64,000 nucleotides of DNA from Myxococcota bacterium (GCA_039028615.1 JBCCHT010000012.1:194465-258464), one strand, 5' to 3'; positions 292 through 62,453 are shown, counted from the stretch's first letter. Notes: a model not told the origin generated them from the letters alone. Translations and numbers: made by a program.

Positions 292-1245
292 TCAGTCCAT
301 CCGCGACGGACCGAGCGGGTACAAGAACTCCTTGAGCCGCGCGTTGACCTTGGCGGGTCGGTCGATCTGCACCCAGTGGCTCGCGTCGTCGATCACGTCG
401 TAGCGGAAGTCGGGTGCAAAGGCCTCGGACGGCCGCGAGAACTCCTGCCCGATGTGCCGATCGCGTGCGCCCCAGATCACCTGCACCGGCCTCGGGATGG
501 GCCGCAGTGCACGCTTGAGGGCGAAGGGGCTGCGCCACAGCAGCGCCCGGTAGTAGTTGAGCGCGGCGGTGGTGGAGCCCCCGGACAGCGCCTGCACGTA
601 GCGATCGATGTCCGCCTCGGAGAACGCCCCCTCGCGCTCCGGCTCGTGCCGATACACCCTTCGCAGCAGCGCGCCGCCGTTTTTGGTCATGCGTCGCTCG
701 GGCAGCAGGGGCAGCTGCATGAGCAGCATGTACGAGCTCTTCTTGACCTGGGTGCGGCTGCGCATCATCTGCATCTGGAACTGCGGATGGGGGCAGTTGA
801 GCACCGAGAGCCGAGAGAGCCGGTCGGGGTGACGCATGGCGAACCACCATCCGACCAGGCCGCCCCAGTCGTGACCGACCACCGCGGCCCGGGTCTCCCC
901 GAGGCGCTCGACGAGCTGGGCGATGTCGGCCGTGAGTCGCTCGATTCGGTAGGCCCGGACGCCGCTGGGTTTGTCGGACAGGTTGTAGCCGCGCATGTCG
1001 GGCGCGACTACACGATAGCCTGCACGCACCAACACCGGGATCTGGAAGCGCCACGAGTACCAGAACTCGGGGAAGCCATGCAGCAGGATGACCAGGGGCC
1101 CCTCGCCGGCTTCGACCACGTGCAGGCGGACTTCGTCGAGCTGCACGTAGCGGTGCGTGACGAAGTCGTCGTTCCAGGGGATGAGCTCTGGAGCGAATCG
1201 CAAAGAAGTGGGGCTCGGCGTCTGCGACATCGGCGAGGTCTTCAT
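292..1245 (-). CDS. Alpha/beta hydrolase, epoxide hydrolase-like
   Basis: LHGFPEFWYSW, APDMRGY, GHDWGG nucleophile elbow, ASHWVQ catalytic His. Confidence 0.92.
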   Translation of the reverse strand: MKTSPMSQTPSPTSLRFAPELIPWNDDFVTHRYVQLDEVRLHVVEAGEGPLVILLHGFPEFWYSWRFQIPVLVRAGYRVVAPDMRGYNLSDKPSGVRAYRIERLTADIAQLVERLGETRAAVVGHDWGGLVGWWFAMRHPDRLSRLSVLNCPHPQFQMQMMRSRTQVKKSSYMLLMQLPLLPERRMTKNGGALLRRVYRHEPEREGAFSEADIDRYVQALSGGSTTAALNYYRALLWRSPFALKRALRPIPRPVQVIWGARDRHIGQEFSRPSEAFAPDFRYDVIDDASHWVQIDRPAKVNARLKEFLYPLGPSRMD

Positions 1246-33864: not shown

Positions 33865-34434
33865 TTAGCGGCACGAGGCTTCGTCGCTGCCGTCCTTGCA
33901 GTCTTCCTCGTTGTCGCAGACCCACGAGATGGGGATCTCCATGCCGTCGTCGCAGACCCAGATGCACTGCTCGTCGGCCTCGTCCTCGCCGTTGGGGCAG
34001 TCCGCCCCTTCGTCGCAGACCCAGTCCTCGGGGATGATGGTGCCGTCGTCGCAGGTGAAGCCGCAGCCCTCTTGGGCCTCGTCCTCGCCGCCTTCGCAGT
34101 CGGGCACGCCGTCGCAGATCTGCTCGCCCGAAAGCTCGGAGCCGTCCTCGCACACGAAGGGCTTGGACGCCGTCTCGTCGCCGGCCGTCTCGTCACCGCC
34201 GGTATCGGTGGCCGCACCGCTGTCGCCGGTTGCCGCTCCCGTATCCCCCGTGGCCGCGGGATCGGTGGTCGCCGCCGTGCCTTCGCCCGCATCGGTATCG
34301 CCGTCGGACGTCGCGTTGTTGGTGGAGGCGTTGTCGCTCTCGTTCGTCTCGCCGTCGTCGGTGAGAATGATGCAACCGGTCGCGTTGCTCATCAGCGTGG
34401 CCGCGGCGAGGAATTTCTTGAAGTCGATGTTCAT
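33865..34434 (-). CDS. Lipoprotein with three LDL-receptor class A-like repeats
   Basis: Lipobox ATGC, then CDGVPDCEGGEDE, WVCDEGADCPNGEDE and WVCDNEEDCKDGSDE. Confidence 0.85.
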   Translation of the reverse strand: MNIDFKKFLAAATLMSNATGCIILTDDGETNESDNASTNNATSDGDTDAGEGTAATTDPAATGDTGAATGDSGAATDTGGDETAGDETASKPFVCEDGSELSGEQICDGVPDCEGGEDEAQEGCGFTCDDGTIIPEDWVCDEGADCPNGEDEADEQCIWVCDDGMEIPISWVCDNEEDCKDGSDEASCR

Positions 34435-37067: not shown

Positions 37068-37252
37068 CCCTCCGAGGATCGGCGGCTGTGGCGTCCAACG
37101 CAAATGCCACGAAGCTCCCTCGCGAGCGGGTGAGGGTACGGCCGGTCTCGTGTTCGATTGTGCAAGTTGCCCAAGCGCGTGGCCGCATGGTGCGCTGGGG
37201 CGGGCCAACGATGGAAGTTTCTCGCCGTGAGCGTTACTCTGGTCCGGCTGTG

Positions 37253-38854
37253 ATGCGGAAAACGAGTTGGAACCCGAGGTTGGTCGTGACCTTCGGCGGA
37301 GCGCTGGCTCTGACCGGCTGCAAGGACACCACCGACCCTGCACCCGCCCAGGACACGGGCGTCGCCACCGAGACCAACGACGACGAGAACGACTCGAGCG
37401 GGAGCACGGTCGACGACAGCGGCAGCACGGGCGAGGACGACCCGAACCGGGCCGAGGTCGTCCACAGCTTCGGCGAGTACGTGCTCAGCCCGCACGAAGA
37501 GATTCAGCCCTGCATCCAGTGGACGCTGAACAACGAGCGGCCCATCTACATCCAGGCGGTCACGCTGGCCAACCAGGGCGGCTACCACCACTCCAACTGG
37601 TTCGTGGTGCCCGACGATCTATACGAGGGTGAGGACGGGTTCTTCGACTGCTCGGACCGCGGCTTCACCGAGCTCGACGCCGCGATCCAGGGCACGGTGC
37701 TCACCGCTCAGTCGACGCAGTCTCGATACGAGCGCATGGAACTGCCGCCGGGTGTGGTCATCAAGGCGCCGCCCCGCCACAAGATCATCGCGGGCGGCCA
37801 CCTGCTCAACCTGGCCAACGGCGACTACGCCACCGAGCTGCGCATGGGCCTGGACATCATCCACCCGTCGGAGGTCGATGTGGTCGCAGCTCCGTTCCGG
37901 CTCACGTACTTCGATCTCCAGATCCCGGGCTTCACCGAGGCTCGCTTCACGGCCAGCTGCAACCTGGCCGACGCCTACGAGACGGCTGCGGCTCGCCCCA
38001 TCGATCTGAAGCTCTACTACGTGCTGCCGCACTACCACTACCTGGGCAACTTCTTCGACCTCACCATCTCCGGGGGTCCGCAAGACGGGGAGAGCGTGTT
38101 CCGCCTCGATGGCTTCAACGCCGACGCATCGGGCCGCCCCTACCCCGAGCCCATCGACCTGACCGGCGCCGAGGGCTTCACCTTCACCTGCGGCTTCAAC
38201 AACTGGACCGATCAGCAAGTCGGCTGGGGTATCGGCGACCAAGAGATGTGCGTGATGCTCGGGCTCGCCGATTCGCGCGTGATCATGGACGGCTCGGCGT
38301 ACAACAACGAGATCGTGGGCACCGACGGCGAGATCCTGCTCAACGAGTCCAGCTGTGACGTGCTCGGCCTGCAAAAGAACGCCGCGCAGACCCTGCCCGA
38401 AGACGACGAGCTCACCGCCCCGCTGTACATCCCGCCCTCGGACCCCGGCGACGACGGCTTGCCACCCGTAGACGAGTGCAAGGACACGCCCGCCGACGCC
38501 GCCCCGGCCGGAGAGGCGACGCTCACTCGGCTGCGAGAGACGCTGTTCGTCTCCACCTGCCAGTTCTCCTCGTGTCACTCGGGCGCCAACGCCTCGGCGG
38601 GGCTCGACCTGGCCGCCGACAACCTCCACACCACGCTGCTCGAGCACGAGGTCACGGGGGCGACGAGCCTGCCGCTGATCGCTCCGGGCGACCCCGAAGG
38701 CAGCTGGCTGTATCAGCGGGTGGCGTACTGCAACCCCACCGACGACGCGGGCAACCCGGTGAGCCACATGCCGCTCAACTCGCCCGAGCTGTCCAACCCC
38801 GAGCTGGTGGCCACGCTCCGCGACTGGATCCAGGCCGGCGCTCAGGACAACTGA
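37253..38854 (+). CDS. Copper type II (PHM/DBH-like) monooxygenase lipoprotein with C-terminal heme-c-like domain
   Basis: Lipobox LTGC, YHHS and GGHLLN (CuH-like), PHYHYLG and DQEMC (CuM-like), CQFSSCH...MP...LRDWIQAGA. Confidence 0.72.
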   Translation: MRKTSWNPRLVVTFGGALALTGCKDTTDPAPAQDTGVATETNDDENDSSGSTVDDSGSTGEDDPNRAEVVHSFGEYVLSPHEEIQPCIQWTLNNERPIYIQAVTLANQGGYHHSNWFVVPDDLYEGEDGFFDCSDRGFTELDAAIQGTVLTAQSTQSRYERMELPPGVVIKAPPRHKIIAGGHLLNLANGDYATELRMGLDIIHPSEVDVVAAPFRLTYFDLQIPGFTEARFTASCNLADAYETAAARPIDLKLYYVLPHYHYLGNFFDLTISGGPQDGESVFRLDGFNADASGRPYPEPIDLTGAEGFTFTCGFNNWTDQQVGWGIGDQEMCVMLGLADSRVIMDGSAYNNEIVGTDGEILLNESSCDVLGLQKNAAQTLPEDDELTAPLYIPPSDPGDDGLPPVDECKDTPADAAPAGEATLTRLRETLFVSTCQFSSCHSGANASAGLDLAADNLHTTLLEHEVTGATSLPLIAPGDPEGSWLYQRVAYCNPTDDAGNPVSHMPLNSPELSNPELVATLRDWIQAGAQDN

Positions 38855-39472: not shown

Positions 39473-40003
39473 TCAGACGCAGACCATGGCCTCGCCGAGC
39501 GCCAGGCACTCCATGCCCAGGGGGCAGGTGGCGTCCATCGAGCAGGCCAGCGCGCAGACCTGGGCCCCGGTGGCATCTTCGACGCACGCCGGGGCGGCGG
39601 TGGCCGTGGCTCCCGGGTTGGCGGCGCAGTCACTCGCGGGAGCCTTGCAGCCCGCGCTGGTGCAGAACCCGGTCGACGCGCCACCGACGAGGACGCAGCT
39701 GGTCAGCCCGATGCAATCGGTATTGGTCAAGCACTCGGAGTACATGCCGTCTTCGGGCTGCTCGTCGGCGGGGTCACCCGTCGCACCCCCCGAGGTCTCG
39801 ACGTCACCGGTCGCGACCTGGGTCTCCGAGTCTTCCGGGGCATCGTCGCCCGTCGCTTCGGCGCTGGAGTTCGACCCCATCGAGTCCGGATCGGAGGTGG
39901 GATCGGCGAAGGTCGTGGCAACGTCTTCGGTGTCGACGTTGCAAGCAAAGGACATGGCTCCGGCGACCACGAGCAAACGAAAGCCAAGAAAACGGGCCGG
40001 CAT
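39473..40003 (-). CDS. Cys-rich lipoprotein
   Basis: Lipobox SFAC, acidic linker, C-terminal Cys-rich module ending CPLGMEC...VCV. Confidence 0.7.
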   Translation of the reverse strand: MPARFLGFRLLVVAGAMSFACNVDTEDVATTFADPTSDPDSMGSNSSAEATGDDAPEDSETQVATGDVETSGGATGDPADEQPEDGMYSECLTNTDCIGLTSCVLVGGASTGFCTSAGCKAPASDCAANPGATATAAPACVEDATGAQVCALACSMDATCPLGMECLALGEAMVCV

Positions 40004-40152
40004 GGGCTGGAGTATGGCGTCAGGTCCGAGACCAGACAAACGCGGCGCACGATGGCTCTACGAGCGGCTCGCGGTGTGATCTGGAGCATGGCCAGGCGCT
40101 CACGGCGTCCGACGGAACGCGATGACCCGACAGACGGCCACCGGTTGCCCGC

Positions 40153-40632
40153 TCAGCGCTCGAGATGTGACTCGGCCTCGTGAAAGCTCAGCGCCGTTTC
40201 GTACAGTCGCCGCCGCGTGGCCCCACCGACCTCGAGCGAGTCGAGGGCCTGCGGTAGGTCTTGCCAGGCATAGGCATCGAGCTTCGCACCGAACCATGCG
40301 ACCGCCATCGCCCACCCTCGCGTGATTCGATTGTCGGTCAACACCACCGAAGCCGAACGCGCCCGCATCGCCGCGTTCGTGAAGCGTCGGCGTTGGCCGG
40401 CGTCGATCGTGACCGCTCCCACGCTCAAGAGCAGACAGTGCTTGGGCCTGCGCTCCGCGAGCACGTCCAAGTAGCTACGCCAGGTCTGCTCCGGCACGGT
40501 GCCGGGCAGCGTCAGCGAAGCGAGCACCCCATCGACCAAGCGCCAGCGATGAGGCGAGGGCCGACCCCTCTGTTCGAAGCCCCCCGGCTCGTCGGGTTCC
40601 TCATATTCCGCCAGCTCTTGTAAGGGGTTCAC
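40153..40632 (-). CDS. STAS/SEC14 (SpoIIAA)-like myxobacterial protein
   Basis: IDAGQRRR, VVLTDNRITRGWAMAVAWFG, ALDSL pattern. Confidence 0.55.
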   Translation of the reverse strand: MNPLQELAEYEEPDEPGGFEQRGRPSPHRWRLVDGVLASLTLPGTVPEQTWRSYLDVLAERRPKHCLLLSVGAVTIDAGQRRRFTNAAMRARSASVVLTDNRITRGWAMAVAWFGAKLDAYAWQDLPQALDSLEVGGATRRRLYETALSFHEAESHLER

Positions 40633-40896
40633 TTATCTTCAGATGATACCGGAGAGGGTCGGGTCGGATCGGCCCAATCATGGCCGAAAGAGCATTCAGG
40701 TGGCGCTCGGGTGCCGTTGTGCTCGATTGCGCGAGTCTCGGGCGCTCGACTGCGAACTAGAATGCAACGATTATATATTAATATGAACTACCAATATTTC
40801 ACAGTCATGGTACAGTGCTTCCAGTCGCGTCACGGCACGGTGTTCGCCTTGGTGGGGTGGGCTTCGGTGACGCGATCGTTCTTCTTCGCTGAGTGT

Positions 40897-40970
40897 CGCC
40901 CCGTCGCGACGTCGTAGCGGTCCGTTATCGGGGGGTAACCCGGGCCCAACGTCGTGACGGGGCGTTGTTT
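40897..40970 (+). other. Long plus-strand hairpin followed by TTGTTT (terminator of a candidate sRNA or leader)
   Basis: 16-bp stem 40897-40912/40949-40964 with one G-U pair, inner GTTATC-GGGG-GGTAAC stem-loop. Confidence 0.45.
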
Positions 40971-41080
40971 CGTGCGCTCGTCGATCGCACCGCAAAGGCG
41001 TGACACGGTGCGAGGAAACGCGGATCCGTGGGTGATCTACGGCAACGAGGGATGCTGTACATTGCGGACCTCGTATCGCC

Positions 41081-43135
41081 GTGCCCCGTCATCGCCCTAA
41101 GGCATCGCCTCCCGCCGACATCGACCTCAACCCGCGGACCGATCCGCCGCTGGACTTCCCGGTCCGCACGCTCGAGGAGATGACGCCTCGGGACTACGAA
41201 ATCCTGGGGTTCATGTGCGGGCTCGAGGTGCATCAGCAGCTCGATACCCGCGGCAAGCTGTTCTGTCGCTGCCCCGCAGGCGTCCGTACCGACCGCGTCG
41301 ACGCCGAGGTGCTCCGCCACATGCGGCCCACGCTGAGCGAGCTGGGCGAGTACGACGGTACCGCGTTGATGGAGTTTCGGACCCGCAAGGAGATCGTGTA
41401 CCTGCTCGATCGCCGTACGGTCTGCACCTACGAGATCGACGACACCCCGCCCTTTCCCATCGACGACGAGGCCGTTCGCTACGCGCTCGAGGTGGCGAGC
41501 CTGTACGGGCTCGATCGCGTCTCCGAGCTGCAGGTGATGCGCAAGCAATACCTCGACGGCTCGATCCCCACCGGCTTCCAGCGCACGGCCATGGTGGCGC
41601 TCGCGGGCTCGCTGCCCTTCCCGGACAGCGAGCTCGGCTCCGACCGCGTGCTGCGAATTCGCCAGCTGACGCTCGAAGAAGACTCGTGCCGCGAGGTCTC
41701 CGACCAGGGGCACCGCGTCGTGTTCCGCACCGATCGCCTCGGCATGCCGCTGACGGAGACGGTCACCGAGCCCGACCTGCTCACCCCGCGCGACGTATTG
41801 ACGGGCGGGCGCCTGCTGGCCCGGGTCGCCCGCGCCACCGGTCGCGTCCGTCGGGGCCCCGGCTCGGCTCGGCAGGACGTCAACGTGTCGATCGCGGGCA
41901 GCCGCCGGGTGGAGATCAAGGGGGTCTGCCAGCACAAGGTGCTGCCGCGGCTGGTCCACATCGAGGCCTATCGCCACCTCGAGCTGCTGCGTATCCGGGC
42001 CGAGCTGCGGCGCCGCGGCGTGACCGAGCCGATGCTCGAGCTGACGAAGCTCGATCCGCCTTGGGACAGCCCCCTGGCCATCGACGCTCGCTCGTTGCTC
42101 CGCGCGTCCCCGGCCACGCCGCTCTGCGAGGCGCGCGAGCGCAGCGACATGATCGCCGCCGTGCGCCTGCCCGGGTTCGCGGGGATGCTCAGCCACCGCA
42201 CGCAGCCGGGCCGCTGCTTCGACCACGAAATCTCCGAGCGCTTGCGAGTCATCGCCTGCCTGACCGCACGCCCCTTCATGACCCACTCCGACGCCGACGA
42301 CGGCATGCTGCGCGACTCCGAGTGGCAGCAGCTTCGCGCGGCCCTGCGCGCGGAGTCGGGCGATGCAGTGGTGGTGGTCTGGGGCCCCGAGGCGGACGTC
42401 GAGACGGCCGTGGAGGAGATCGTCGGCCGTAGTCGCGAGGCCCTCATCGGCGTGCCCTCGGAGACCCGCCAGGCGCACGGCAACGGCACGACCGGGTTCG
42501 AGCGCATCCTGCCCGGACCGGAGCGCATGTACCCGGACACCGATACTCCGCCCTGGCCCGTGCCCGACACATGGCTGGCCGAGATCGATGCCGATCCGCC
42601 CGAGCGCCCCCACGATCGAGAGCAGCGCTACATCGCGGGCGGGCTCACCCGTCGGGCCGCGCAGGCGCTGATGGACCTCGAGCTCGCCGGGCTCTTCGAC
42701 GCGCTCGCCCCCACCACCGAGGTCGGTCGCCGCCGCCTCGCCTCCGCGCTGGAGTGCCGGGTGGTGGCATGGTGGCGTGAGATCGGGTCCCGCCCCACGC
42801 CCAAGGCCGAGCGCCTGCGCCCGCTGGTCGACGCGGTGGACTCCGAAGCGCTGCGAGCCGAGGCCTACGACGCGGTCTTCGACGCGCTGCTGCGCGACAC
42901 CCAGACCGAGCCCGCCGCGATCGTGGCCCGCCGCCTCGAGGGCAAAGACGCGCTCGGCGACCTGCAGCGCGCCATCGACGAGCTGCAGCCGCGCCTGGCC
43001 ACCATGCGCTTTTCCTCCGCCGAGGCCCGCCTGCGCTGGGCCTTCGGCCAGGTGATGCCCGTCGTGCTCGGGCGCCTGTCCCCCGACATCGTCCGCGAAA
43101 AGCTCGTCGCCGCCCTCGGAGGCCCGAACCAATGA
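41081..43135 (+). CDS. gatE: Glu-tRNA(Gln) amidotransferase subunit E (archaeal-type)
   Basis: GLEVHQQLDT-KLFCRCP, RPTLSELGE, MRK..LDGS..TGFQRT, LEED, DRLGMPL, RQDVNVSI..RVEIKGV, AspRS-like insertion (RLPGFAG..QPGR..HSD), GVPSETR...LPGPERMYPDTD. Confidence 0.93.
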   Translation: MPRHRPKASPPADIDLNPRTDPPLDFPVRTLEEMTPRDYEILGFMCGLEVHQQLDTRGKLFCRCPAGVRTDRVDAEVLRHMRPTLSELGEYDGTALMEFRTRKEIVYLLDRRTVCTYEIDDTPPFPIDDEAVRYALEVASLYGLDRVSELQVMRKQYLDGSIPTGFQRTAMVALAGSLPFPDSELGSDRVLRIRQLTLEEDSCREVSDQGHRVVFRTDRLGMPLTETVTEPDLLTPRDVLTGGRLLARVARATGRVRRGPGSARQDVNVSIAGSRRVEIKGVCQHKVLPRLVHIEAYRHLELLRIRAELRRRGVTEPMLELTKLDPPWDSPLAIDARSLLRASPATPLCEARERSDMIAAVRLPGFAGMLSHRTQPGRCFDHEISERLRVIACLTARPFMTHSDADDGMLRDSEWQQLRAALRAESGDAVVVVWGPEADVETAVEEIVGRSREALIGVPSETRQAHGNGTTGFERILPGPERMYPDTDTPPWPVPDTWLAEIDADPPERPHDREQRYIAGGLTRRAAQALMDLELAGLFDALAPTTEVGRRRLASALECRVVAWWREIGSRPTPKAERLRPLVDAVDSEALRAEAYDAVFDALLRDTQTEPAAIVARRLEGKDALGDLQRAIDELQPRLATMRFSSAEARLRWAFGQVMPVVLGRLSPDIVREKLVAALGGPNQ

Positions 43136-44529
43136 CCGACGCCAACGAGGACTTCAAGGGCTATCGCGAGCCGATGCTCGGCGTGATGCAGCGCTTCGGC
43201 GTGACCGTCTGGTCCGAGATCGAGGCCCACACCACGCAGGGCGACTTCGAGGGCCTGGTGCTGCCGCGCTCGGAGACGGCCGACGCCGACCACCTCGTGC
43301 TGAAGCTGGTCAGCGGCTACAACATCGGGATTCGCCACGACACGGTGATCGAGCTGCGCAAGGTCGGCTACCGCAAGGCGGAGTACAAGATCCCCGAGGA
43401 GCCCTTCCCCAGCGATCCGGGCAAGCCCAAGGTCATGCTCTTCGGCACCGGGGGCACCATCGCCTCGCGGCTCGACTACCGCACGGGCGCGGTCATCCCC
43501 GCGTTCAGCCCGGGCGAGCTGTACGGCTCGGTCCCCGAGCTGGCCGACATCTGCAACCTCGAGACGGAGAAGCTCTTCGGCGTCTTCTCCGAGAACATGG
43601 GCAAGGACGAGTACCTCACGCTCGCCACCCGGGTCGGCGAGGCCATCGAGGCCGGCTACGACGGCGTCGTGGTGGGCCACGGCACCGACACCATGCACCA
43701 CACCGCCGCGGCGCTGTCGTTCATGGTCCACGACTCGCCCATCCCCATCGTGATGGTGGGCAGCCAGCGCTCCTCCGACCGGCCCTCCTCCGATGCCGCG
43801 CGCAACCTGATCGCCGCGACCACGGCCGCCGCCACCGGGCCCTACGCGGAGACGATGGTCTGCATGTTCGGGCCCACCTCCGACCGCTACAACCTGCTGC
43901 ACCGCGGCACGCGGGTTCGGAAGATGCACAGCTCGTACCGCAGCACCTTCCGCACGCTGGGCGACATCCCGCTGGCGATGGTGCAGGAGGACGGGGCCAT
44001 CGAGCCCATCGCCACCAACATTCGGCCCCGTCGCGACGACCGCAAGGCCAACGTGCGCGTCGCCTTCGACGACAAGGTCACGCTCCTTTATTACTACCCG
44101 AACATGCAGCCCGACGTGATCGACGCGTTGGTGCAGTGTGGCTACCGCGGCATCGTCATCGCGGGCACGGGCCTGGGGCACGTGAACAAGAAGGTCTATC
44201 CCGCGCTCGAGCGGGCCCGCGACGCGGGCGTGCACGTGTACATGACGCTGCAGACGCTGTGGGGCTTCGTGCAGATGAACGTGTACGAGACCGGCCGCGA
44301 GATCTTGGGGCTGGGCGTGGTGCCGCTGGCCAACATGCTGCCCGAGGTCGCCTACATCAAGCTCGGCTGGGCGCTGGGCCTGCATCCCGACGAGCCGGAC
44401 GAGGTTCGCACGCTCATGACCACCACGCTGGCCGGCGAGATGACCGAGGGCGAGCCCTTCGACGGCTATCTCGTGCTGCAAGGCGGCGTGCCCGAAGCCG
44501 AGCAGCTCATCGGCAAAATCTGGTGGTGA
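43132..44529 (+). CDS. gatD: Glu-tRNA(Gln) amidotransferase subunit D (archaeal-type)
   Basis: GatD N-domain EGLVLPRSE..VLKLVSGYNIGI, then TGGTIASRLDYRTGAV, HGTDT, SQRSSDRPSSD, HRGTRVRKMHSS. ATGA overlap with gatE. Confidence 0.94.
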   Translation: MTDANEDFKGYREPMLGVMQRFGVTVWSEIEAHTTQGDFEGLVLPRSETADADHLVLKLVSGYNIGIRHDTVIELRKVGYRKAEYKIPEEPFPSDPGKPKVMLFGTGGTIASRLDYRTGAVIPAFSPGELYGSVPELADICNLETEKLFGVFSENMGKDEYLTLATRVGEAIEAGYDGVVVGHGTDTMHHTAAALSFMVHDSPIPIVMVGSQRSSDRPSSDAARNLIAATTAAATGPYAETMVCMFGPTSDRYNLLHRGTRVRKMHSSYRSTFRTLGDIPLAMVQEDGAIEPIATNIRPRRDDRKANVRVAFDDKVTLLYYYPNMQPDVIDALVQCGYRGIVIAGTGLGHVNKKVYPALERARDAGVHVYMTLQTLWGFVQMNVYETGREILGLGVVPLANMLPEVAYIKLGWALGLHPDEPDEVRTLMTTTLAGEMTEGEPFDGYLVLQGGVPEAEQLIGKIWW

Positions 44530-44548
44530 TTTGGGCTACGATGGAGCC

Positions 44549-45691
44549 ATGCGTGTTGGGTGGCCCGTCGCTCTTTGCCTCGTGCTCGGCGGCTGCGCGC
44601 GCGAAAACCCCAGCTACGACGCTGGGGCCGTGCCCACGACCACCGACGGCACCCCACCGGTCACCAGCGGCATGGGCAGCGACGGCGTCACCTCGTCTTC
44701 GCCGCCCGTCGACACCCAGAGCCCGCCGGTCTCGGACAGCGGCTCGCTCGATACGGAAGACTCCGGGCCAAACCTGAGCGAGGGCCCCTGCCCCACGTAC
44801 TTCGCCGACTTCGACGAGGACGGATGGGGCAGCGACGCCGATGCGCTCGAGACCTGCGACCCGCCCCAGGGCTATGTCGAGCAGGGCGGCGACTGCGACG
44901 ACGACGACCCGCGCGTGTTCCCGGGGCGGCTTCGATGTGACACCAAGTCGCCCTCGCTGTTCGCGTGGTATCGGCTCGATGGCGACGAAGAGTACGTCGC
45001 CGACGACTCGCACTACGGCAACCCGGCGGCCCCTGGTTCGACCACGCCCGCCCAAGTCATCGACGGGGCGTTCCGCGAGGCGCGGGGCTTCGGCTTCGGC
45101 ACCCGGCTGCTTCGCGTGCACGACATGCTCTCGGCGCTCGGCACCCAGCCGGGCGACGTGCTGCGCCAAGGAACGCTGGCGGCGTGGCTGCGCATCGAGA
45201 ACCCGGCGTTGGCCTGCGCGAGCGAGTTCTGCCTCGTGCCCGCCGTGCACTTCGCCGACGAGTCGGGCAACGGCTTCGGCTTCGAGCCCGAGGTCCACAT
45301 CCACGCCGCCCGCGGCAAGTTCTCCATCGGCTTCGAATGGGAGGGCTGGATCACCACCGCGGGCGAAGGCGCGGGCGCGGGGTGCTGGGCCACCGGTCCC
45401 ACGATCATGTACGACGAGTGGACCCACGTCGCGTTCGTCTGGGACGAGCAAGGCGACGGGAGCACCGAGTGTGCGCTCTTCGTCAACGGTCAGCTCGCCG
45501 GCGACGACTACTCCCCCGCCCCCGTGCTCCGGGAGCCTCTGTGGCGGGCGGGCGGGATCGGAGGCATCGCCAACGACATCAGCGACGTACTGTCGTTCCC
45601 CGGCTCGATCGACGAGGTGATGTTCTTCACCGAGCGCCGCAGCCCCACCGACATCCAGCTCGACTGCGGGCTGGACCGCTGCTTCGAGTAG
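44549..45691 (+). CDS. Lipoprotein with MopE-related/putative metal-binding repeat and LamG-like domain
   Basis: Lipobox LGGC, YFADFDEDGWG...GDCDDDDPRVFPG, WTHVAFVWD, FPGSIDEVMFF. Confidence 0.78.
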   Translation: MRVGWPVALCLVLGGCARENPSYDAGAVPTTTDGTPPVTSGMGSDGVTSSSPPVDTQSPPVSDSGSLDTEDSGPNLSEGPCPTYFADFDEDGWGSDADALETCDPPQGYVEQGGDCDDDDPRVFPGRLRCDTKSPSLFAWYRLDGDEEYVADDSHYGNPAAPGSTTPAQVIDGAFREARGFGFGTRLLRVHDMLSALGTQPGDVLRQGTLAAWLRIENPALACASEFCLVPAVHFADESGNGFGFEPEVHIHAARGKFSIGFEWEGWITTAGEGAGAGCWATGPTIMYDEWTHVAFVWDEQGDGSTECALFVNGQLAGDDYSPAPVLREPLWRAGGIGGIANDISDVLSFPGSIDEVMFFTERRSPTDIQLDCGLDRCFE

Positions 45692-45697
45692 CGGGCG

Positions 45698-48600
45698 TCA
45701 GTCGTCATGCAGCGGCGCGAGCCGAGGGTCGGCGGCGATGCGATCGGCGAGGTAGAGCGGACGCGGGCTGCGTTCCATCGCGCGCTGCACCAAGGTCGAG
45801 GCGTCTGCTGGCCGGCCGTCGGCCACCGCGACCGCGGCCATCTCCAGCGCCAGCTCGGTACGAGCGGAGCTGCTCTTCGCGGCCGGCAAGCGCTCGACCA
45901 GGGCCGCAGCCGCCTCCAGATCGTGGCTCGCGGCGTCGAGCCGACGACTGCGCAGATGCACGCGGGCCCGCGCCATCAACAGGTGAAACGACGGATCGAC
46001 CGGGCGCGCGTCATCGACCTCGTGGGGCTCCAGGTCGAAGGGCAGAGCGACGAGCTCGCGCTGAACCCGAGGATCGTCGAGGTGGTGGCGGATCGCGACC
46101 TCCCATGCACGATGCGCCGCTTCGGGAAAGCGCGGGCCGAGGATCGAGCGGAGCAAGGGCCCGTACACCGCTGGGCGGAGCCGCAACAGCGTGGTGAAGG
46201 TCGCCGCGTTGCTCTCGAAATCGATGGCCAGGGCCCGTAACTGCTCGCTCGCTTCATCGAGCCGCCCTCGGTGCACCGCGCTGTGGATCCGCGGCTCGGT
46301 GACGGCCGGGGAGTCGCCCAACCGCGCGAAGATCTCGTCGGCGGCACGATAGTCGGTCTGCGCGAAGGCACGGGCGGCCATTGCCGCGTCCGAAGGCTGC
46401 TCGCCGACGTCACGGACCTGGGCCCCCGACAGCGTGAGTCGGTCGATCCTCACCGCGCCCCAGGCCGCCGCTTCCTGCATCGCTCGGATCTCCAGGCGAT
46501 ACGCCCCCGGCGGCGGATAGTGTGCATGCGGCAGCCGATGCACCGTGTTGGGGGGAATCGGTCCGTCGGGGTCGAAGAGGACGCAGTGACGCTCGTGGAG
46601 CTCGGGGAACAACGAGCCTCGCTGCCGTTGGTGCGCGCTCGCCCCGGGCTCCCGCTCGAGCGGCTCGATGAGCGACACCGGAGGCCGGGGATGCTCGGCG
46701 TCCGTGCCCCACACGTAGCACCGAAGGGTCGTCTCCACCCGATCCGCACCGCCTTGCGATCTCGCGACCATGCTCATGACGGGCGGGCCGCCTCCCTCGG
46801 GGACCAGCCGGACCTCGATCGACGCGCTCCACTCCATCAGCTCGATGTGCCAGTCGAGGTCGAGGGTCAGCAAACCGCCCGCCCAGACCACCGGGATCGA
46901 CGCGATGAGCCCGGGTCGGGCACCAGCGATCTCCAACGAGCCCGATGCGGGGTCACGACGCAGCGCCAGGGGTTGATGCACCTCCAGCGCGTCCGGCAGC
47001 GGCCGGTCCTGGCGAATCTCCACCGTCGCATCACCGCGCGTGACGGCCGAGGTCTGATCGAGCAGACGTGCCACCGAGTCTCGTTGCTCGGGGTCGAGCG
47101 AGGGCTGCTCGAGCAGCGCCTGTGCGATGCGAGCGACGGCCGCGTACTCCCCGAGTCGGAGGTTGGTCTCGAGCGCTCCCCGTAGGCCCGCGACGGCGTG
47201 CTCGGGCTGGGCTCCCACGCGCTCGTAGAGCGTCAGGGCCCGCTCGTACTCGTTGGACTGCGCGTAGAGCTGGGCCGCCCGCAGCCAGGCATGAACGCGG
47301 CCTTCGGGCGTCCCGGCCGCGATCTCCTCGAACGAGTTCGCCGCTTCCACGAACAGCCCCATCGCCACCAGCTCTTCGGCGCGAGCCCACTCGGGCGCCG
47401 GCTGGGGTGGCGTGACGGGCTCGCCGGAGAGCGCGGCTGCCGGACGGACCTCACGCAGCGGCAACGCCTCATCCCCGTGTCCGACTAGCCACAGCGAAGT
47501 GTCCGACTCGCCGATGACGAGCGCGATGAGCTCGGGCGTCTCGTCGTCATCGACCTCGACCCTCTGCATCGGGACCATCCGACCGAGCACCATGGGCACG
47601 AAGGTCTCGTCTGCAGCCTGGAGCAGCACGATCATCCCCAGTCGACCCCGCGTCATCCGAGCACAGATGTCCTGAAGCCCATCTCCGTTGAAGTCCGCGA
47701 CCAGCAGGTTCGACATTGCAGCCGGCTTGCTCGCCTTGCGGATCGGCTCGTAGCGCGGATCGGGCATCGAGAGGGTGCTGGCTCGTCGCAGTGCTTCGTC
47801 CGCGAAATCCAGCACGTAGATTCCGCTGGGCTCCCCGAACGGGCGCTCCTCGGGGAACACCACCGTATTCGCCAGTTCATCGAGCTTGGCGGCGAGGATC
47901 CGAGTCTCGTCGCTTCCGGTCGCAATCGGCACGAGGTCGCTGATGAGGCCCAGGTGGTCGCGCGACCGCAGGCGCAGCGCGTCGCCACGGCGATGAAAGA
48001 CCCGCACGTCGTAGGACTGCCAGCCGCCCGTGCCGACGAACAGCTCGGGCGTACCATCGCGATCGGCGTCGACGATGGTCATCGCCAGCGTGTCCGAGCG
48101 CGAGGCCTCGGCCTCCGAGACCGGGGCCTGCCACTGCCAGCGACCGCTCGGGTCGGGCTCGAGCACGACGATGCGACGACTCGGCGGTCCGCTGCCCACG
48201 TAGATTTCCGGCCGGCCGTCGCCATCCAGGTCCCCCGCGGCGACGCTCTGTGCCCCACCGTCGGGCCAGCGAACTTCCTCGGTCCACGACCCGTCGCGAC
48301 GAAGGGTGAGCAGCCGCGACGTGTCGCGCTCGTCATTGGAGACCACGATCATCCCCGGCCGGCCCTGCCCGAGCGAGACGACCTCGGCACCGTCGACTCC
48401 CAGCTCGTAGCGCGCGATCTCGGGGAACTCGGGGCTCTGCTCGACCACCCGCGCGACGCCGCTTTTGGTCTCGAGCACGAACAGCTCGTCCCGACCATCC
48501 CCCTCGAGATCGAAGGGCAGCAGCAAGACCTCGACCGGAAAGGGCAGCGGCTGCCCTTCTTCGAAGGCCCGCAGCGCACCAATGCGGGGGTCACCCGTGG

Positions 48601-59476: not shown

Positions 59477-59579
59477 GAGTTTTCGCCGGCTCTTGCCCGA
59501 TCCGGCGCCTTTTTCTATAGCAGTGCAAACGGATGGCTGGCCGGACGCTGCCCGACCGCAGCCCCCAGGAGATGAGCCC

Positions 59580-62453
59580 ATGACCCCTCTCGAGAAGCTG
59601 GCGACGCAGGGCCAATCGATCTGGCTCGACTACATCCGCAGAGGCATGACTCGCAGTGGCGAGCTGTCGCGCCTCGTGAAGGAGCAGGGCCTGCGAGGCA
59701 TGACCTCGAACCCCGCGATCTTCCAGAAGGCAATTACGGGTAGCGACGACTACGACGACGTCCTCGGTGAGTTCATCGCCGACGCCGAGCTCGACGCCAA
59801 GCAGATCTTCGAGCGCCTCGCGGTGGTCGACATCCAAGAGGCCGCCGACGCCCTGCGCCCGGTCTACGACGAGACCAAAGGCCTCGACGGCTACGTCAGC
59901 CTCGAGGTCTCGCCCAGCCTGGCCTTCGACGCCGAGGGCACCATCGAGGAAGCCCGGCGTCTGTGGCAGGCGGTCGACCGACCCAACCTGATGATCAAGG
60001 TGCCGGGCACGCCTCCGGGCCGCGCCGCGATCGAGCAGCTCATCGCCGAGGGCATCAACGTCAACGTCACCCTGATCTTCGCGCGCGAGGACTACCGGGC
60101 GATCGCCTGGGCCTACGTGACCGGGCTCGAGCGCCGCGCCGCCGCGGGTGATCCGGTCGGGCACGTGGCCAGCGTGGCCAGCTTCTTCGTCAGTCGCATC
60201 GACAGCGAGGTCGACGGGCGCCTGAACGCCCTGCGAGCCGCCACCGACGACGAGGCCGCGCACCGCCGCATCGACGGGCTGCTCGGCGTGGCCGCGGTGG
60301 CGAACGCCAAGCTCGCCTACGCGATCTACCAGGAGATCTCCACGTCCGAGCGCTGGAAGGCCCTGGTCGACAAAGGTGCCCAACCCCAGCGCCTCCTGTG
60401 GGCGAGCACGGGCACCAAGAATGCCGCGTACAGCGACGTGAAGTACGTCGACGAGCTGGTCGGTCCCGACACCGTCAACACGGTGCCGCCCAAGACCTTC
60501 GAGGCCTTCTGCGACCACGGCAACCCGACCCCCGCGCTGCTCGACGGCGCCGAGCAGGCGGCCCGATCGATTCGCGACCTCGAGGAGGTCGGCGTGTCGC
60601 TCGACGAGGTCACCGACCTGCTGCTCGCCCGCGGCGTGGCCCTGTTCGAGGACGCCATCGATGCCCTCATGGCCACCATCGCGCAGATGCAGCGACGCCA
60701 GCGGGGGCCCCGGCTCGACCGTACCGGCTCCACCCTGCCGCCCGCCCTGACCGAGAAGGTCGCCGAGGCCATGAAAGCCTGGGACGCGGCGGGCAACACC
60801 GGTCGACTCTGGCGCAAGGATCCCACGCTGTGGACCGACTCCGGGGAGGACCGCTGGCTGGGCTGGCTCGACATCGTCGACGCCCAGCGTGAGCGTCACG
60901 ACCTGTTCGCCGAGCTTTCGGGCATGGTGCGCGGCCGCGGCTTCACCCATGCCCTGCTCATCGGCATGGGCGGCTCGAGCCTGGGCCCCGACGTCCTTGC
61001 CCAGACCTTCGGTGCCTTCGTGCCCAAGGGCTCGCCGCAGCTGGCCATCGTCGACTCCACCGACCCCGGGCAGATCGCCGCCATCGAGGCCTCGGTCCCG
61101 CTCGAGACCACGCTGTTCATCGTCTCCAGCAAGTCGGGCAGCACGCTCGAGCCCAAGGTCATCCTCCAGCACTTCCTCACCCGCATGAAGAAGGAGCGCG
61201 GCGAGGGCGAGGCGGGGCGGCACTTCATCGCCATCACCGATCCCGGCTCCAAGCTCGAGCAGCTCGCCAAGGACGAGGGCTTCCTGCGCATCCTCTCCGG
61301 CGTGCCCGAGATCGGCGGACGCTTCTCCGCCTTCTCGCACTTCGGCATCGTGCCCGCGGCCGCCATGGGCATGGACGCGACCGGCTTCCTCGACGAGGCC
61401 GCGCTCATGGTCGACGCCTGCCGCAGCGAGGTGGCCGAGGAAAACCCCGGCGTGCAGCTGGGCATCGTGCTCGGTGCGGCCGCCAACGCGGGCCGCGACA
61501 AGCTCACCCTGGTGGCCTCGCCTCGCGTGGCGCTGTTCGGGGCCTGGCTCGAGCAGCTCGTGGCCGAGTCGACCGGCAAGCTGGGCAAGGCGATCATCCC
61601 GCTCGAAGGCGAGCCCTTGCGCCCCCCCGCTCAGTACGGCGACGACCGGCTCTTCGTGTACCTGCGCCTGCGCTCCACCCCCGACGCGGCTCAGGACCGC
61701 GCCATGGCGGCGATCGAGGCGGCCGGGCACCCCGTGGTGCACATCGAGCTCGACGACATCCACGCCCTGAGCCAGGAGATGTTCCGCTGGGAGGTCGCCA
61801 CCGCGGTCGCGGGCGCCCTGATGAACATCAACCCCTTCGACCAGCCCGACGTCGAGTCGGCCAAGGTCGAGGCGCGGGCCATGATGGAGGCCTACGAGCG
61901 CGACGGGGCCTTCCCGGCCGAGACGCCCATCCTCGAGCAGGACGGCATGGCCCTGCACACCGACGAGGCCAACGCCAGCGCGCTGCGAGACGCGGCCGGC
62001 AAAGACGGCGACCTCGTCGGCCTCCTGCGGGCACACTTGGCACGCATCCAGCTGCGCGACTACTTCGCCCTGCTCGCGTTCCTGCCCATGAACGACGAGA
62101 ACACGCGGATGCTCCAGCGCATGCGCGCGCGGGTGCTCAAGCGTCGCGGCGCGGCCACGTGCCTGGGCTTCGGCCCCCGCTTCCTGCACTCGACCGGCCA
62201 GGCCTACAAGGGCGGCCCGGGCAACGGCGTGTTCTTGCAGGTCACGTGTGACGACGCCGTCGACCTGCCCGTGCCGGGGCAGCGCTACAGTTTCGGGGTG
62301 GTGAAGACCGCCCAAGCCCGCGGAGACTTCGAGGTCCTGGTCAGTCGCCAGCGCCGAGCCCTCCGCGTTCACCTGGGTTCTGACATTGCAGCCGGACTGG
62401 CTGCACTCGACGCGGCCATCACTGCGGCCGTGGAGGAGGACACCGGACCATGA
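59580..62453 (+). CDS. Bifunctional transaldolase / glucose-6-phosphate isomerase
   Basis: QSIWLD, GMTSNP, VSLEVSP, NLMIKVP and LWASTG (Tal), then IGMGGSSLG, SKSGST, GGRFS, EQLVAESTGK and PFDQPDVE (Pgi). Confidence 0.95.
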   Translation: MTPLEKLATQGQSIWLDYIRRGMTRSGELSRLVKEQGLRGMTSNPAIFQKAITGSDDYDDVLGEFIADAELDAKQIFERLAVVDIQEAADALRPVYDETKGLDGYVSLEVSPSLAFDAEGTIEEARRLWQAVDRPNLMIKVPGTPPGRAAIEQLIAEGINVNVTLIFAREDYRAIAWAYVTGLERRAAAGDPVGHVASVASFFVSRIDSEVDGRLNALRAATDDEAAHRRIDGLLGVAAVANAKLAYAIYQEISTSERWKALVDKGAQPQRLLWASTGTKNAAYSDVKYVDELVGPDTVNTVPPKTFEAFCDHGNPTPALLDGAEQAARSIRDLEEVGVSLDEVTDLLLARGVALFEDAIDALMATIAQMQRRQRGPRLDRTGSTLPPALTEKVAEAMKAWDAAGNTGRLWRKDPTLWTDSGEDRWLGWLDIVDAQRERHDLFAELSGMVRGRGFTHALLIGMGGSSLGPDVLAQTFGAFVPKGSPQLAIVDSTDPGQIAAIEASVPLETTLFIVSSKSGSTLEPKVILQHFLTRMKKERGEGEAGRHFIAITDPGSKLEQLAKDEGFLRILSGVPEIGGRFSAFSHFGIVPAAAMGMDATGFLDEAALMVDACRSEVAEENPGVQLGIVLGAAANAGRDKLTLVASPRVALFGAWLEQLVAESTGKLGKAIIPLEGEPLRPPAQYGDDRLFVYLRLRSTPDAAQDRAMAAIEAAGHPVVHIELDDIHALSQEMFRWEVATAVAGALMNINPFDQPDVESAKVEARAMMEAYERDGAFPAETPILEQDGMALHTDEANASALRDAAGKDGDLVGLLRAHLARIQLRDYFALLAFLPMNDENTRMLQRMRARVLKRRGAATCLGFGPRFLHSTGQAYKGGPGNGVFLQVTCDDAVDLPVPGQRYSFGVVKTAQARGDFEVLVSRQRRALRVHLGSDIAAGLAALDAAITAAVEEDTGP

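Follow-up and report, generated by a model that had tools for sequence, protein, structure and literature searches.

The closest described relatives of the locus reported here are two tRNA-dependent amidotransferases. Archaeal GatDE, solved from P. abyssi (1ZQ1) and M. thermautotrophicus (2D6F), has two subunits and is stated to be restricted to archaea in the accessible parts of PMC2811023 and PMC9499178, a view which has been used to argue the ages of the amidotransferases and why archaea never took up the glutaminyl-tRNA synthetase GlnRS. Bacterial GatCAB carries out the same overall type of reaction and its GatB is a paralogue of GatE, but its GatA is an amidase-signature glutaminase rather than an asparaginase-type enzyme, and GatB lacks the insertion present in GatE and carries a 3-10 turn and a Lys-rich tail motif (PMC2811023, accessible part). 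Amidotransferases are also retained beside direct synthetases, as in Thermus thermophilus, Deinococcus radiodurans and Bdellovibrio bacteriovorus, which possess AsnRS, GlnRS and GatCAB (PMC4206432, accessible part). Here we describe a gatE-gatD (gatED) operon in a 64,000-nucleotide stretch of DNA from a Myxococcota bacterium (GCA_039028615.1, JBCCHT010000012.1:194465-258464; the whole stretch is referred to as the window). The pair is an ordinary member of a large, monophyletic bacterial GatDE clade covering at least ten phyla, and is notable only for the loss of a neighbouring glnS. A full-text literature search returned no report of a bacterial GatDE in titles or abstract openings, and reports elsewhere in the literature are possible.

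Identity of the gatE-gatD operon

Both genes lie on the forward strand and are joined by an ATGA overlap, the gatD ATG (43132-43134) running over the gatE TGA, with aaccaATGAccg at 43130-43138; the open reading frame (ORF) listing and this sequence agree with an earlier note on this DNA, which had described two full-length ORFs coupled in this manner. GatE scored 398.4 bits against the NCBIfam model TIGR00134 (cut-off 319.55) and 439.9 bits against NF003107, slightly below its cut-off of 456, whilst the GatB models gave 95–135 bits, every one failing its cut-off (best 135 versus 338). The closest solved proteins were the GatE subunits of P. abyssi (1zq1_C, 294 bits, query residues 38-678) and M. 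thermautotrophicus (2d6f_C, 271 bits), with the best solved GatB at 83 bits. The Pfam GatB_N profile (positions 2-276) matched GatE residues 45-499, split by ~180 extra residues, and a genome-wide GatE search rose over the cut-off at the gatED locus only. All of the GatE motifs listed in the earlier note are in the translation (RPTLSELGE, DGSIPTGFQRT, RQDVNVSI, RVEIKGV and GVPSETR...RMYPDTD).

GatD scored 483.3 bits against TIGR02153 (cut-off 324) and 478.7 bits against NF003217 (cut-off 310), with 349.4 bits against the type I asparaginase model, and its closest solved relatives were likewise GatD subunits (P. abyssi 1zq1_A, 391.5 bits; M. thermautotrophicus 2d6f_A, 359.4 bits; best asparaginase, 144 bits). 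The GatD motifs that had been read from the sequence are present at T106-T109 (TGGT), H183-T187 (HGTDT) and S211-D221 (SQRSSDRPSSD), and TGGT, HGTDT, SQRSSDRPSSDA and RKMH are identical in the alignment with 1zq1_A and 2d6f_A. The model scores and solved relatives concur and therefore confirm the original observation of GatE and GatD, and exclude a GatB accompanied by an ordinary L-asparaginase.

The window pair resembles archaeal GatDE (2D6F, 1ZQ1) in its two subunits, full-length alignment, catalytic motifs and domain order, with GatD_N and an asparaginase core in GatD, and cradle, insertion, helical part and tail in GatE. The loop lying by the first tRNA base pair, short and positive (RRGPG), likewise follows the GatE pattern of the archaeal enzyme, in place of the 3-10 turn of GatB, and the tail of archaeal GatE is described as YqeY-like (both PMC2811023, accessible part). 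In the window GatE the Pfam GatB_Yqey profile found no match, and a weak YqeY-type match was to NF011291 (residues 511-680, E-value 3.7e-4). The pair differs from its archaeal counterparts in its bacterial host, in the tight coupling of the genes in the order gatE-gatD, in an identity of only 31–38% to archaeal GatE representatives, in 13 switched alignment columns, in an N-terminal extension of ~37 residues and in divergent insertion and tail domains.

To place these differences, 66 bacterial-clade rows were compared with 83 archaeal GatE representatives. Of the 85 columns conserved at ≥90% in archaea, 65 stay at ≥90% in the bacterial rows and the majority residue is the same in most of the other 20; 13 columns have switched to another conserved residue in the bacterial clade. 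Among the switched segments are CTYEIDDTPP (archaeal CLVElDEEPP), RKQYLDGSIPTGFQRT (archaeal RKtViDGSNTSGFQRT) and EEDSCRE (archaeal EEDAAR), and three of the switched residues, T116, T122 and Y157, are those of the genome's own GatB. The residues which the earlier note had picked out as divergent (CTYEIDDTPP, KQYLDGSIP, GSARQD) are, in this comparison, clade-defining bacterial substitutions. The query matches the archaeal consensus at 45% of positions in the first part of the cradle, which holds the motifs GLEVHQQL, KLFCRCP, RPTLSELGEYDGTA, DGSIPTGFQRT, LEEDSCRE, DRLGMPL, RRGPGSARQDVNVS and RVEIKGV, and at 50% in its second part. Agreement is lower in the insertion, at 30%, and lower still in the helical domain (23%) and the tail (17%); the insertion can be followed without a break along 1zq1_C. 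The N-terminal extension is conserved inside the query's subgroup, with N17, P18, R19 and L24 invariant in 19 bacterial sequences. By these comparisons the catalytic core appears conserved and the tRNA-binding parts diverged, the assignment of particular conserved cradle residues as catalytic being our presumption; the chemistry has probably been kept and the recognition of tRNA or partner remodelled.

GatDE has long been resident in this lineage. The G+C content at third codon positions is 0.91 in gatE and 0.96 in gatD, against 0.83–0.93 in the flanking ORFs, which bears out the earlier impression of a codon bias like that of the neighbours. The 17 flanking ORFs scanned belong to ordinary families of large-genome myxobacteria (among them a Ser/Thr kinase with FG-GAP repeats, a transglutaminase-like protein and an acyl-CoA dehydrogenase) and include no transposase or integrase family, again as had been proposed. 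The earlier note had also suggested checking read coverage across both junctions. Contigs built independently by Logan from one public run matched 40000-41907, 41878-43398, 43369-44121 and 44094-46500 with 0 differences; this run, the one DNA run listed as containing the stretch, with no RNA run listed, is labelled marine metagenome and is probably the source sample, its reads being the same as those of the submitted assembly. As these contigs span 40000-46500, both junctions and the gatE/gatD joint are bridged, and their lack of differences means that, within the same reads, the joins are not an artefact of the submitted assembly, which rules out a chimera.

Distribution among bacteria

Scanning a single genome for each prokaryotic species brought up 548 stretches with a relative, the best 80 of which were examined (loci L027-L106). 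All 80 carry bacterial-type titles, with 79 resolving to Bacteria and one without rank: 26 Gemmatimonadota, nine Planctomycetota, eight Myxococcota, eight Acidobacteriota, six Eiseniibacteriota and five Krumholzibacteriota, the rest including Cloacimonadota, Ignavibacteriota, Fermentibacterota/Aegiribacteria, Zixiibacteriota and KSB1. A protein-collection search (E-value ≤ 1e-20) gave at least 8000 candidates, the best 120 of which were 58–100% identical (the 100% match being the window's own protein). The closest GatE is that of Paraliomyxa miuraensis SMH-27-4 (77% identity), followed by those of Nannocystaceae and Myxococcota metagenome-assembled genomes. Several of the best 120 proteins, from Paraliomyxa, Myxococcales, Acidobacteriota and Planctomycetota, already bear the NCBI name 'Glu-tRNA(Gln) amidotransferase subunit GatE', so the earlier guess that bacterial homologues sit in automated annotation was right. 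Across phyla GatD is 64–86% and GatE 40–77% identical, which fits purifying selection.

At closer range GatE was found in 12 of 41 relatives (own genome included), among them four of five other same-genus genomes and one of 19 other genomes of the family, and in 43 of 301 Myxococcota genomes sampled evenly across the phylum, at a threshold where four of four archaeal and none of ten bacterial control genomes were positive. Within Myxococcota the pattern is patchy but lineage-stable, GatE being present in 14/14 and 5/5 genomes of two families and in 0/27 and 0/23 of two others. The earlier note had supposed an old transfer from archaea to bacteria; whatever its origin, the pair does not stem from an event of this myxobacterium but falls in the multi-phylum bacterial clade, and the 548 stretches and 43 positive Myxococcota genomes rule out a private archaeal import.

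The gene neighbourhood was compared across the 80 loci. gatD lies 3' of gatE on the same strand in 68 of the 68 loci with room for it, the other 12 ending at a contig edge; these 68 include an in-frame GatE-GatD fusion in Krumholzibacteriota (L066:6001-9432), a 980-nt gap (L055) and a gatD with frame breaks, lying in three frames (L081:8041-9425). In the separate set of relatives, gatD is convergent in L026 and none is found within 1.5 kb in L024. glnS directly adjoins gatED in 13 loci: it lies 3' of gatD in four Myxococcota (L027, L028, L029, L031) and eight Gemmatimonadota (L036, L052, L055, L057, L058, L059, L064, L090), and 5' of gatED in one planctomycete (L033), where it encodes a full GlnRS-YqeY fusion. 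Six Gemmatimonadota loci have a GluRS gene divergent from gatE, and glnS and GluRS are the only recurrent neighbours; all-against-all clustering of 3914 ORFs from the 80 loci and the window yielded no conserved neighbour, missing glnS, which was later found by tblastn. The linked GlnRS score 357 bits on the archaeal GluRS model versus 72 on the bacterial one. They score best (870–940 bits) on the GlnRS/YqeY-fusion family NF011291, that of the Deinococcus-type GlnRS with a YqeY tail, a likeness shared with the YqeY-like tail described for GatE (PMC2811023, accessible part), but most of them, and the host GlnRS, lack this tail. Sixty loci were scanned for tRNA genes beside gatED, which gave tRNA-Ser(GCU) in five, tRNA-Glu(UUC) in two and tRNA-Val in one, and no tRNA-Gln. 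A fragment of asnA follows directly after gatD in one KSB1 locus (L103:6192-6413).

The window itself has no adjacent glnS, and 67 of the 80 loci lack it in their available flanks. The genes 5' of gatE (37.4–40.6 kb) are syntenic with the same-genus loci L028, L029 and L030, and this synteny stops exactly at the gatD stop codon, after which a gene for a putative lipoprotein with a LamG domain occupies the glnS position of the same-genus loci. No glnS remnant was found in the window, the best tblastn match (E-value 0.039) lying elsewhere in it.

Phylogeny of GatE

An exhaustive search of 50%-identity representatives (E-value ≤ 1e-30) gathered 563 proteins, among which identity to the query falls in a clear step, with one group at 42–69% and another at 31–38%. 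In a FastTree phylogeny of 150 rows, rooted on the genome's GatB, the named bacteria all fall, with ~40 unnamed representatives, into a single clade (stem 0.41, support 100), whose sister is P0162, a cluster named Heimdallarchaeota. Further clusters are named Thorarchaeota (P0183), Odinarchaeota (P0186), Hodarchaeales (P0237), Parvarchaeota (P0182), Aenigmarchaeota (P0209) and CSSED10-310 bacterium (P0130). A quick IQ-TREE search of 58 rows under LG+C20+F+G4 gave the bacterial clade an SH-aLRT of 100 and the Heimdallarchaeota sister relationship 97, and an ingroup-only run (LG+F+G4, 1000 ultrafast bootstraps) supported the split between bacteria and archaea at 100, with the Heimdallarchaeota row nearest the bacterial side and split from the other archaea at 99.

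When the 28 archaeal rows were constrained to a single group, the log-likelihood was 20.3 units better than that of the free quick tree and the approximately unbiased (AU) test gave a p-value of 0.80, so both topologies stand: the bacteria may branch from within the Asgard archaea or be the sister group of the archaea as a whole. Long-branch attraction of the bacterial stem towards GatB is a real risk here. The nearest archaeal GatE is that of Heimdallarchaeota, but as reciprocal monophyly is not rejected, the old archaea-to-bacteria transfer of the earlier note is not supported as to direction or age.

Synthetases, amidotransferases and tRNAs of the host

The host genome (12.27 Mb, 94 contigs, 96.7% complete) encodes a single GlnRS (583 bits, C36:101418-103109, L007), which shares 75% identity with its counterpart in one same-genus genome but only 50–55% with those of all other relatives, including the gatED-linked GlnRS of close ones; a foreign copy seems to have replaced the original. 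A gatC-gatA-gatB operon lies on another contig, C11 (L108:2650-6063), and the genome also holds an AsnRS (606.7 bits), two AsnB-family genes and an AspRS of the non-discriminating (ND) type (NF003483, 518.7 bits; C23:145512-146855, L107:1013-2356), in which the host GatCAB has an obvious client. The ND-AspRS and gatCAB beside AsnRS and two AsnB make up a double route to Asn-tRNA in the style of Thermus and Deinococcus. Host and Thermus, Deinococcus and Bdellovibrio thus share an amidotransferase retained beside direct synthetases; they differ in that the extra route of the latter is explained by ND-AspRS and asparagine supply, and no matching ND-GluRS is visible for the host GatDE.

ARAGORN called 86 tRNA genes, three of them tRNA-Gln, which are of two kinds. 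The gene at C17:161497-161571 (UUG) has G2:C71, G73 and a three-pair D-stem, and resembles the E. coli type; those at C9:257781-257854 (UUG) and C13:127948-128021 (CUG) have C2:G71 and a four-pair, tRNA-Glu-like D-stem, the C13 copy with A73 and lying 3 nt from tRNA-Glu(CUC).

We extended the inventory to 30 GatDE genomes, picked from the loci for size and spread. GlnRS exceeded the cut-off in 28 of them, the two misses being genomes of 1.7 and 2.9 Mb, and AsnRS did so in 29; bacterial GatDE is therefore no substitute for a missing GlnRS or AsnRS. GatB was over the cut-off in 14 and split or partial in two more, AsnB was over it in 24, and AsnA was found in two of five tested genomes without any AsnB match. 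A clear ND-AspRS type was present in four genomes, and was the sole AspRS in the three of these without GatB. In five GatDE genomes that lack GatB, searching by pattern for tRNA-Gln genes returned five matches, none of which ARAGORN called as a tRNA.

Proposed function and alternatives

We consider it an even call that the operon encodes a working GatDE of the bacterial branch, a tRNA-dependent amidotransferase that would still amidate Glu-tRNA(Gln). By homology, GatD, an asparaginase-type amidase, would free ammonia from glutamine or asparagine, and GatE would bind the acceptor end of glutamylated tRNA(Gln), phosphorylate the side-chain carboxyl with ATP and then amidate it to give Gln-tRNA(Gln). 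The substrate would be the bacterial-type tRNA(Gln) with U1:A72, accommodated by tRNA-binding domains remodelled relative to archaeal GatE. As GatDE is surplus to GlnRS, with GatCAB also present, its likeliest use would be as a parallel or clean-up route for any Glu-tRNA(Gln) arising. In favour of this reading stand the family scores and solved relatives, the conserved GatE columns and GatD catalytic motifs, the constant gatE-gatD order, the identities kept across phyla, the native composition and context of the locus, and the 13 loci with glnS beside gatED, which would link GatDE to the charging of tRNA(Gln).

Several observations weigh against continued Glu-tRNA(Gln) amidation. With GlnRS and GatCAB present the enzyme is dispensable on paper, and the genome has no evident source of Glu-tRNA(Gln), encoding one bacterial GluRS (gltX_bact, 461.5 bits) and one GluQRS. 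This GluRS aligns over its full length to the discriminating GluRS (D-GluRS) of T. thermophilus, with Arg at the Arg358-equivalent position, and the same Arg occurs in 26 of the 29 GluRS rows that could be read from GatDE genomes, including 12 of 12 readable rows from those lacking GatB, and in the GluRS whose gene adjoins gatE in four loci of Gemmatimonadota. Arg358 is described as specific to D-GluRS, a rule which failed in H. pylori (PMC3927822, accessible part); being phylum-dependent, it is therefore weak evidence against a dedicated ND-GluRS feeding GatDE. Archaeal GatDE reads A1:U72 and the D-loop (PMC9499178, accessible part), whereas at the 1:72 pair, which the earlier note proposed to survey, all three host tRNA-Gln have U1:A72; this concerns the pathway in its archaeal form and leaves the assignment to the family by sequence untouched. 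Archaea are moreover described as lacking GlnRS in the accessible part of the same paper, whereas the window's host has one and is without an archaeal-type ND-GluRS partner. A missing GlnRS is the usual explanation for an indirect pathway. Within GatE the archaeal insertion motif HSDELPYGI is not kept, reading THSDADDGML in the query, and the tail position of GxxAxGx reads AEARLRW, this motif itself being only ~50% conserved in the 83 archaeal rows. Biochemical data on any bacterial GatDE were not found in the literature searched. The earlier claim of a third route to Gln-tRNA thus holds in gene content, where GatDE is a third amidation or charging option beside GlnRS and gatCAB; a working route would need Glu-tRNA(Gln), against whose supply the discriminating-type Arg of the sole GluRS speaks weakly, and the U1:A72 pairs are not the archaeal A1:U72.

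Since glnS recurs beside gatED and GlnRS is homologous to the archaeal partner of GatDE, a possible GlnRS-coupled role is the most interesting alternative, if an unlikely one. GatDE would here partner GlnRS, which shares the archaeal/eukaryal GlxRS fold with ND-GluRS, by letting it dock on GatE and share tRNA(Gln), in order to repair Glu-tRNA(Gln) made at glutamine scarcity or to aid tRNA binding as does the YqeY tail of Deinococcus GlnRS. Such a partnership would agree with the presence of GlnRS in nearly all of the GatDE genomes inventoried, and in 12 of 12 GatE-positive versus 21 of 29 GatE-negative relatives (kin genomes, making this a description rather than a test), with the glnS adjacency in three phyla, with the archaeal-GluRS-like scores of the linked GlnRS, and with the pocket formed by the GatE insertion and catalytic domains, which has been modelled for archaeal ND-GluRS (PMC2943598, accessible part). 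However, in the host the sole, divergent GlnRS is encoded on another contig and yet GatDE is kept, and most loci have no glnS in their available flanks. The GlnRS enzymes studied to date, furthermore, strongly reject glutamate.

A broader account, speculative and to our minds improbable, is that the clade is a remnant of the change-over from indirect to direct formation of Gln-tRNA(Gln). A gatE-gatD-glnS unit, coming from an Asgard-like or early eukaryote-line donor or dating to the age of the split between archaea and bacteria, would have spread among bacteria, acting in a transamidosome-like manner with GlnRS rather than with bacterial GluRS and keeping tRNA(Gln) charged at glutamine scarcity. 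The nearest position of Heimdallarchaeota, the open root, the absence of GlnRS from only two small genomes in 30 and the glnS adjacency in three phyla are consistent with it.

Recruitment outside translation, with GatDE acting on another glutamylated tRNA or carrier, for instance for a secondary metabolite or cell-envelope component, also has a low probability. The lack of a visible translational need, the remodelled tRNA-binding domains and the clade-specific N-terminal extension point to it indirectly, but the ORF clustering gave no conserved neighbour other than glnS and GluRS, the genes next to the operon in the window, for a lipoprotein and a Ser/Thr kinase, are not biosynthetic, and conservation extends to the cradle residues holding the aminoacyl end.

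A shift in specificity of the bacterial clade to Asp-tRNA(Asn), amidated alone or together with Glu-tRNA(Gln) as a route to asparagine on tRNA, is distinctly improbable. The host ND-AspRS, the 14 of 30 GatDE genomes without an over-cut-off GatB and the KSB1 asnA fragment would suit this; against it, AsnRS is near-constant in the inventory, AsnB is over the cut-off in most genomes with AsnA in two of the five tested without it, a clear ND-AspRS occurs in only four, the host gatCAB is at hand to serve the ND-AspRS, and the GatE insertion is predicted to exclude ND-AspRS (PMC2943598, accessible part). The gene inventories thus give the Asp-tRNA(Asn) reading no support. Finally, a decaying or functionless leftover, suggested by the dispensability on paper and by the broken gatD of one relative (L081), is very improbable given the intact frames, native codon bias, conserved catalytic motifs and retention of the pair throughout two Myxococcota families.

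Hundreds of bacterial species in at least ten phyla possess an intact, conserved GatDE, alongside GlnRS in 28 of the 30 genomes examined, and this implies either a role for GatDE outside the current two-route picture or that the charging of bacterial tRNA(Gln) is less clean than assumed. With its gatE-gatD-glnS operon, the cultured Paraliomyxa miuraensis makes the matter accessible to experiment, and the clade as a whole merits biochemical study.

Other features of the locus and genome

Coordinates of the operon, its domains and adjacent features are collected in Table 1. The GGAGG lies 11 nt 5' of the gatD ATG, and the spacer 5' of gatE is presumed to be its promoter region. Rfam (E-value ≤ 1) found no match in this spacer, and a promoter and terminator scan of 38–47 kb found no sigma-70-like or terminator-like site. 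Its AT-rich patch at 40760-40810 (...gattatatattaatatgaactaccaatatttcac...) stands in a genome of 68% G+C. The downstream lipoprotein ORF runs from 44531 to 45691, with a likely start 19 nt past the gatD stop and a signal peptide ending in LVLGGC, and has no NCBIfam match.

Table 1 Features of the gatE-gatD locus, in window coordinates
Feature	Position	Strand	Basis and remarks
gatE	41081..43135	+	684 aa, GTG start, TGA stop 43133-43135; ORF listing and translation
gatD	43132..44529	+	465 aa, ATG start within ATGA overlap; ORF listing and translation
GGAGG, likely gatD ribosome-binding site, within gatE end	43117..43121	+	read in sequence; function putative
Intergenic spacer 5' of gatE, 448 nt	40633..41080	.	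AT-rich patch near 40760-40810
GatE residues 1-37, N-terminal extension absent from archaeal GatE	41081..41191	+	archaeal chains and representatives align from ~37-38
GatE residues 38-330, catalytic cradle part 1 (boundaries approximate)	41192..42070	+	consensus comparison
GatE residues 331-455, GatE-specific insertion (AspRS/GAD-like), divergent (boundaries approximate)	42071..42445	+	split GatB_N; 1zq1_C alignment
GatE residues 456-505, cradle part 2 (GVPSETRQA, RILPGPERMYPDTDTPP)	42446..42595	+	structure alignment and consensus comparison
GatE residues 506-684, helical and YqeY-like tail domains, most diverged	42596..43132	+	consensus comparison
GatD domains: GatD_N residues 29-75, asparaginase N 100-287, asparaginase C 315-429			Pfam (GatD_N 45.2 bits)
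Putative lipoprotein with concanavalin-A-like/LamG domain (MRVGWPVALCLVLGGC...), not part of the enzyme	44549..45691	+	Pfam Laminin_G_3, 5.7e-13

Elsewhere in the window, a 588-aa ORF without a known family (37088-38854) is found duplicated in tandem at the same-genus loci L028 and L029, a 189-aa ORF on the reverse strand (33865-34434) contains two LDL-receptor class A repeats, which are unusual in bacteria, and a 986-aa ORF on the forward strand (59493-62453) joins transaldolase and phosphoglucose isomerase domains. The host genome also contains an odd 79-nt tRNA-Asn(GUU) call, which has a long variable region and G1:C72 (C23:6712-6790), and a tRNA-Asp(GUC) call whose acceptor stem contains two mismatches (C85:7915-7989), alongside normal copies of both.

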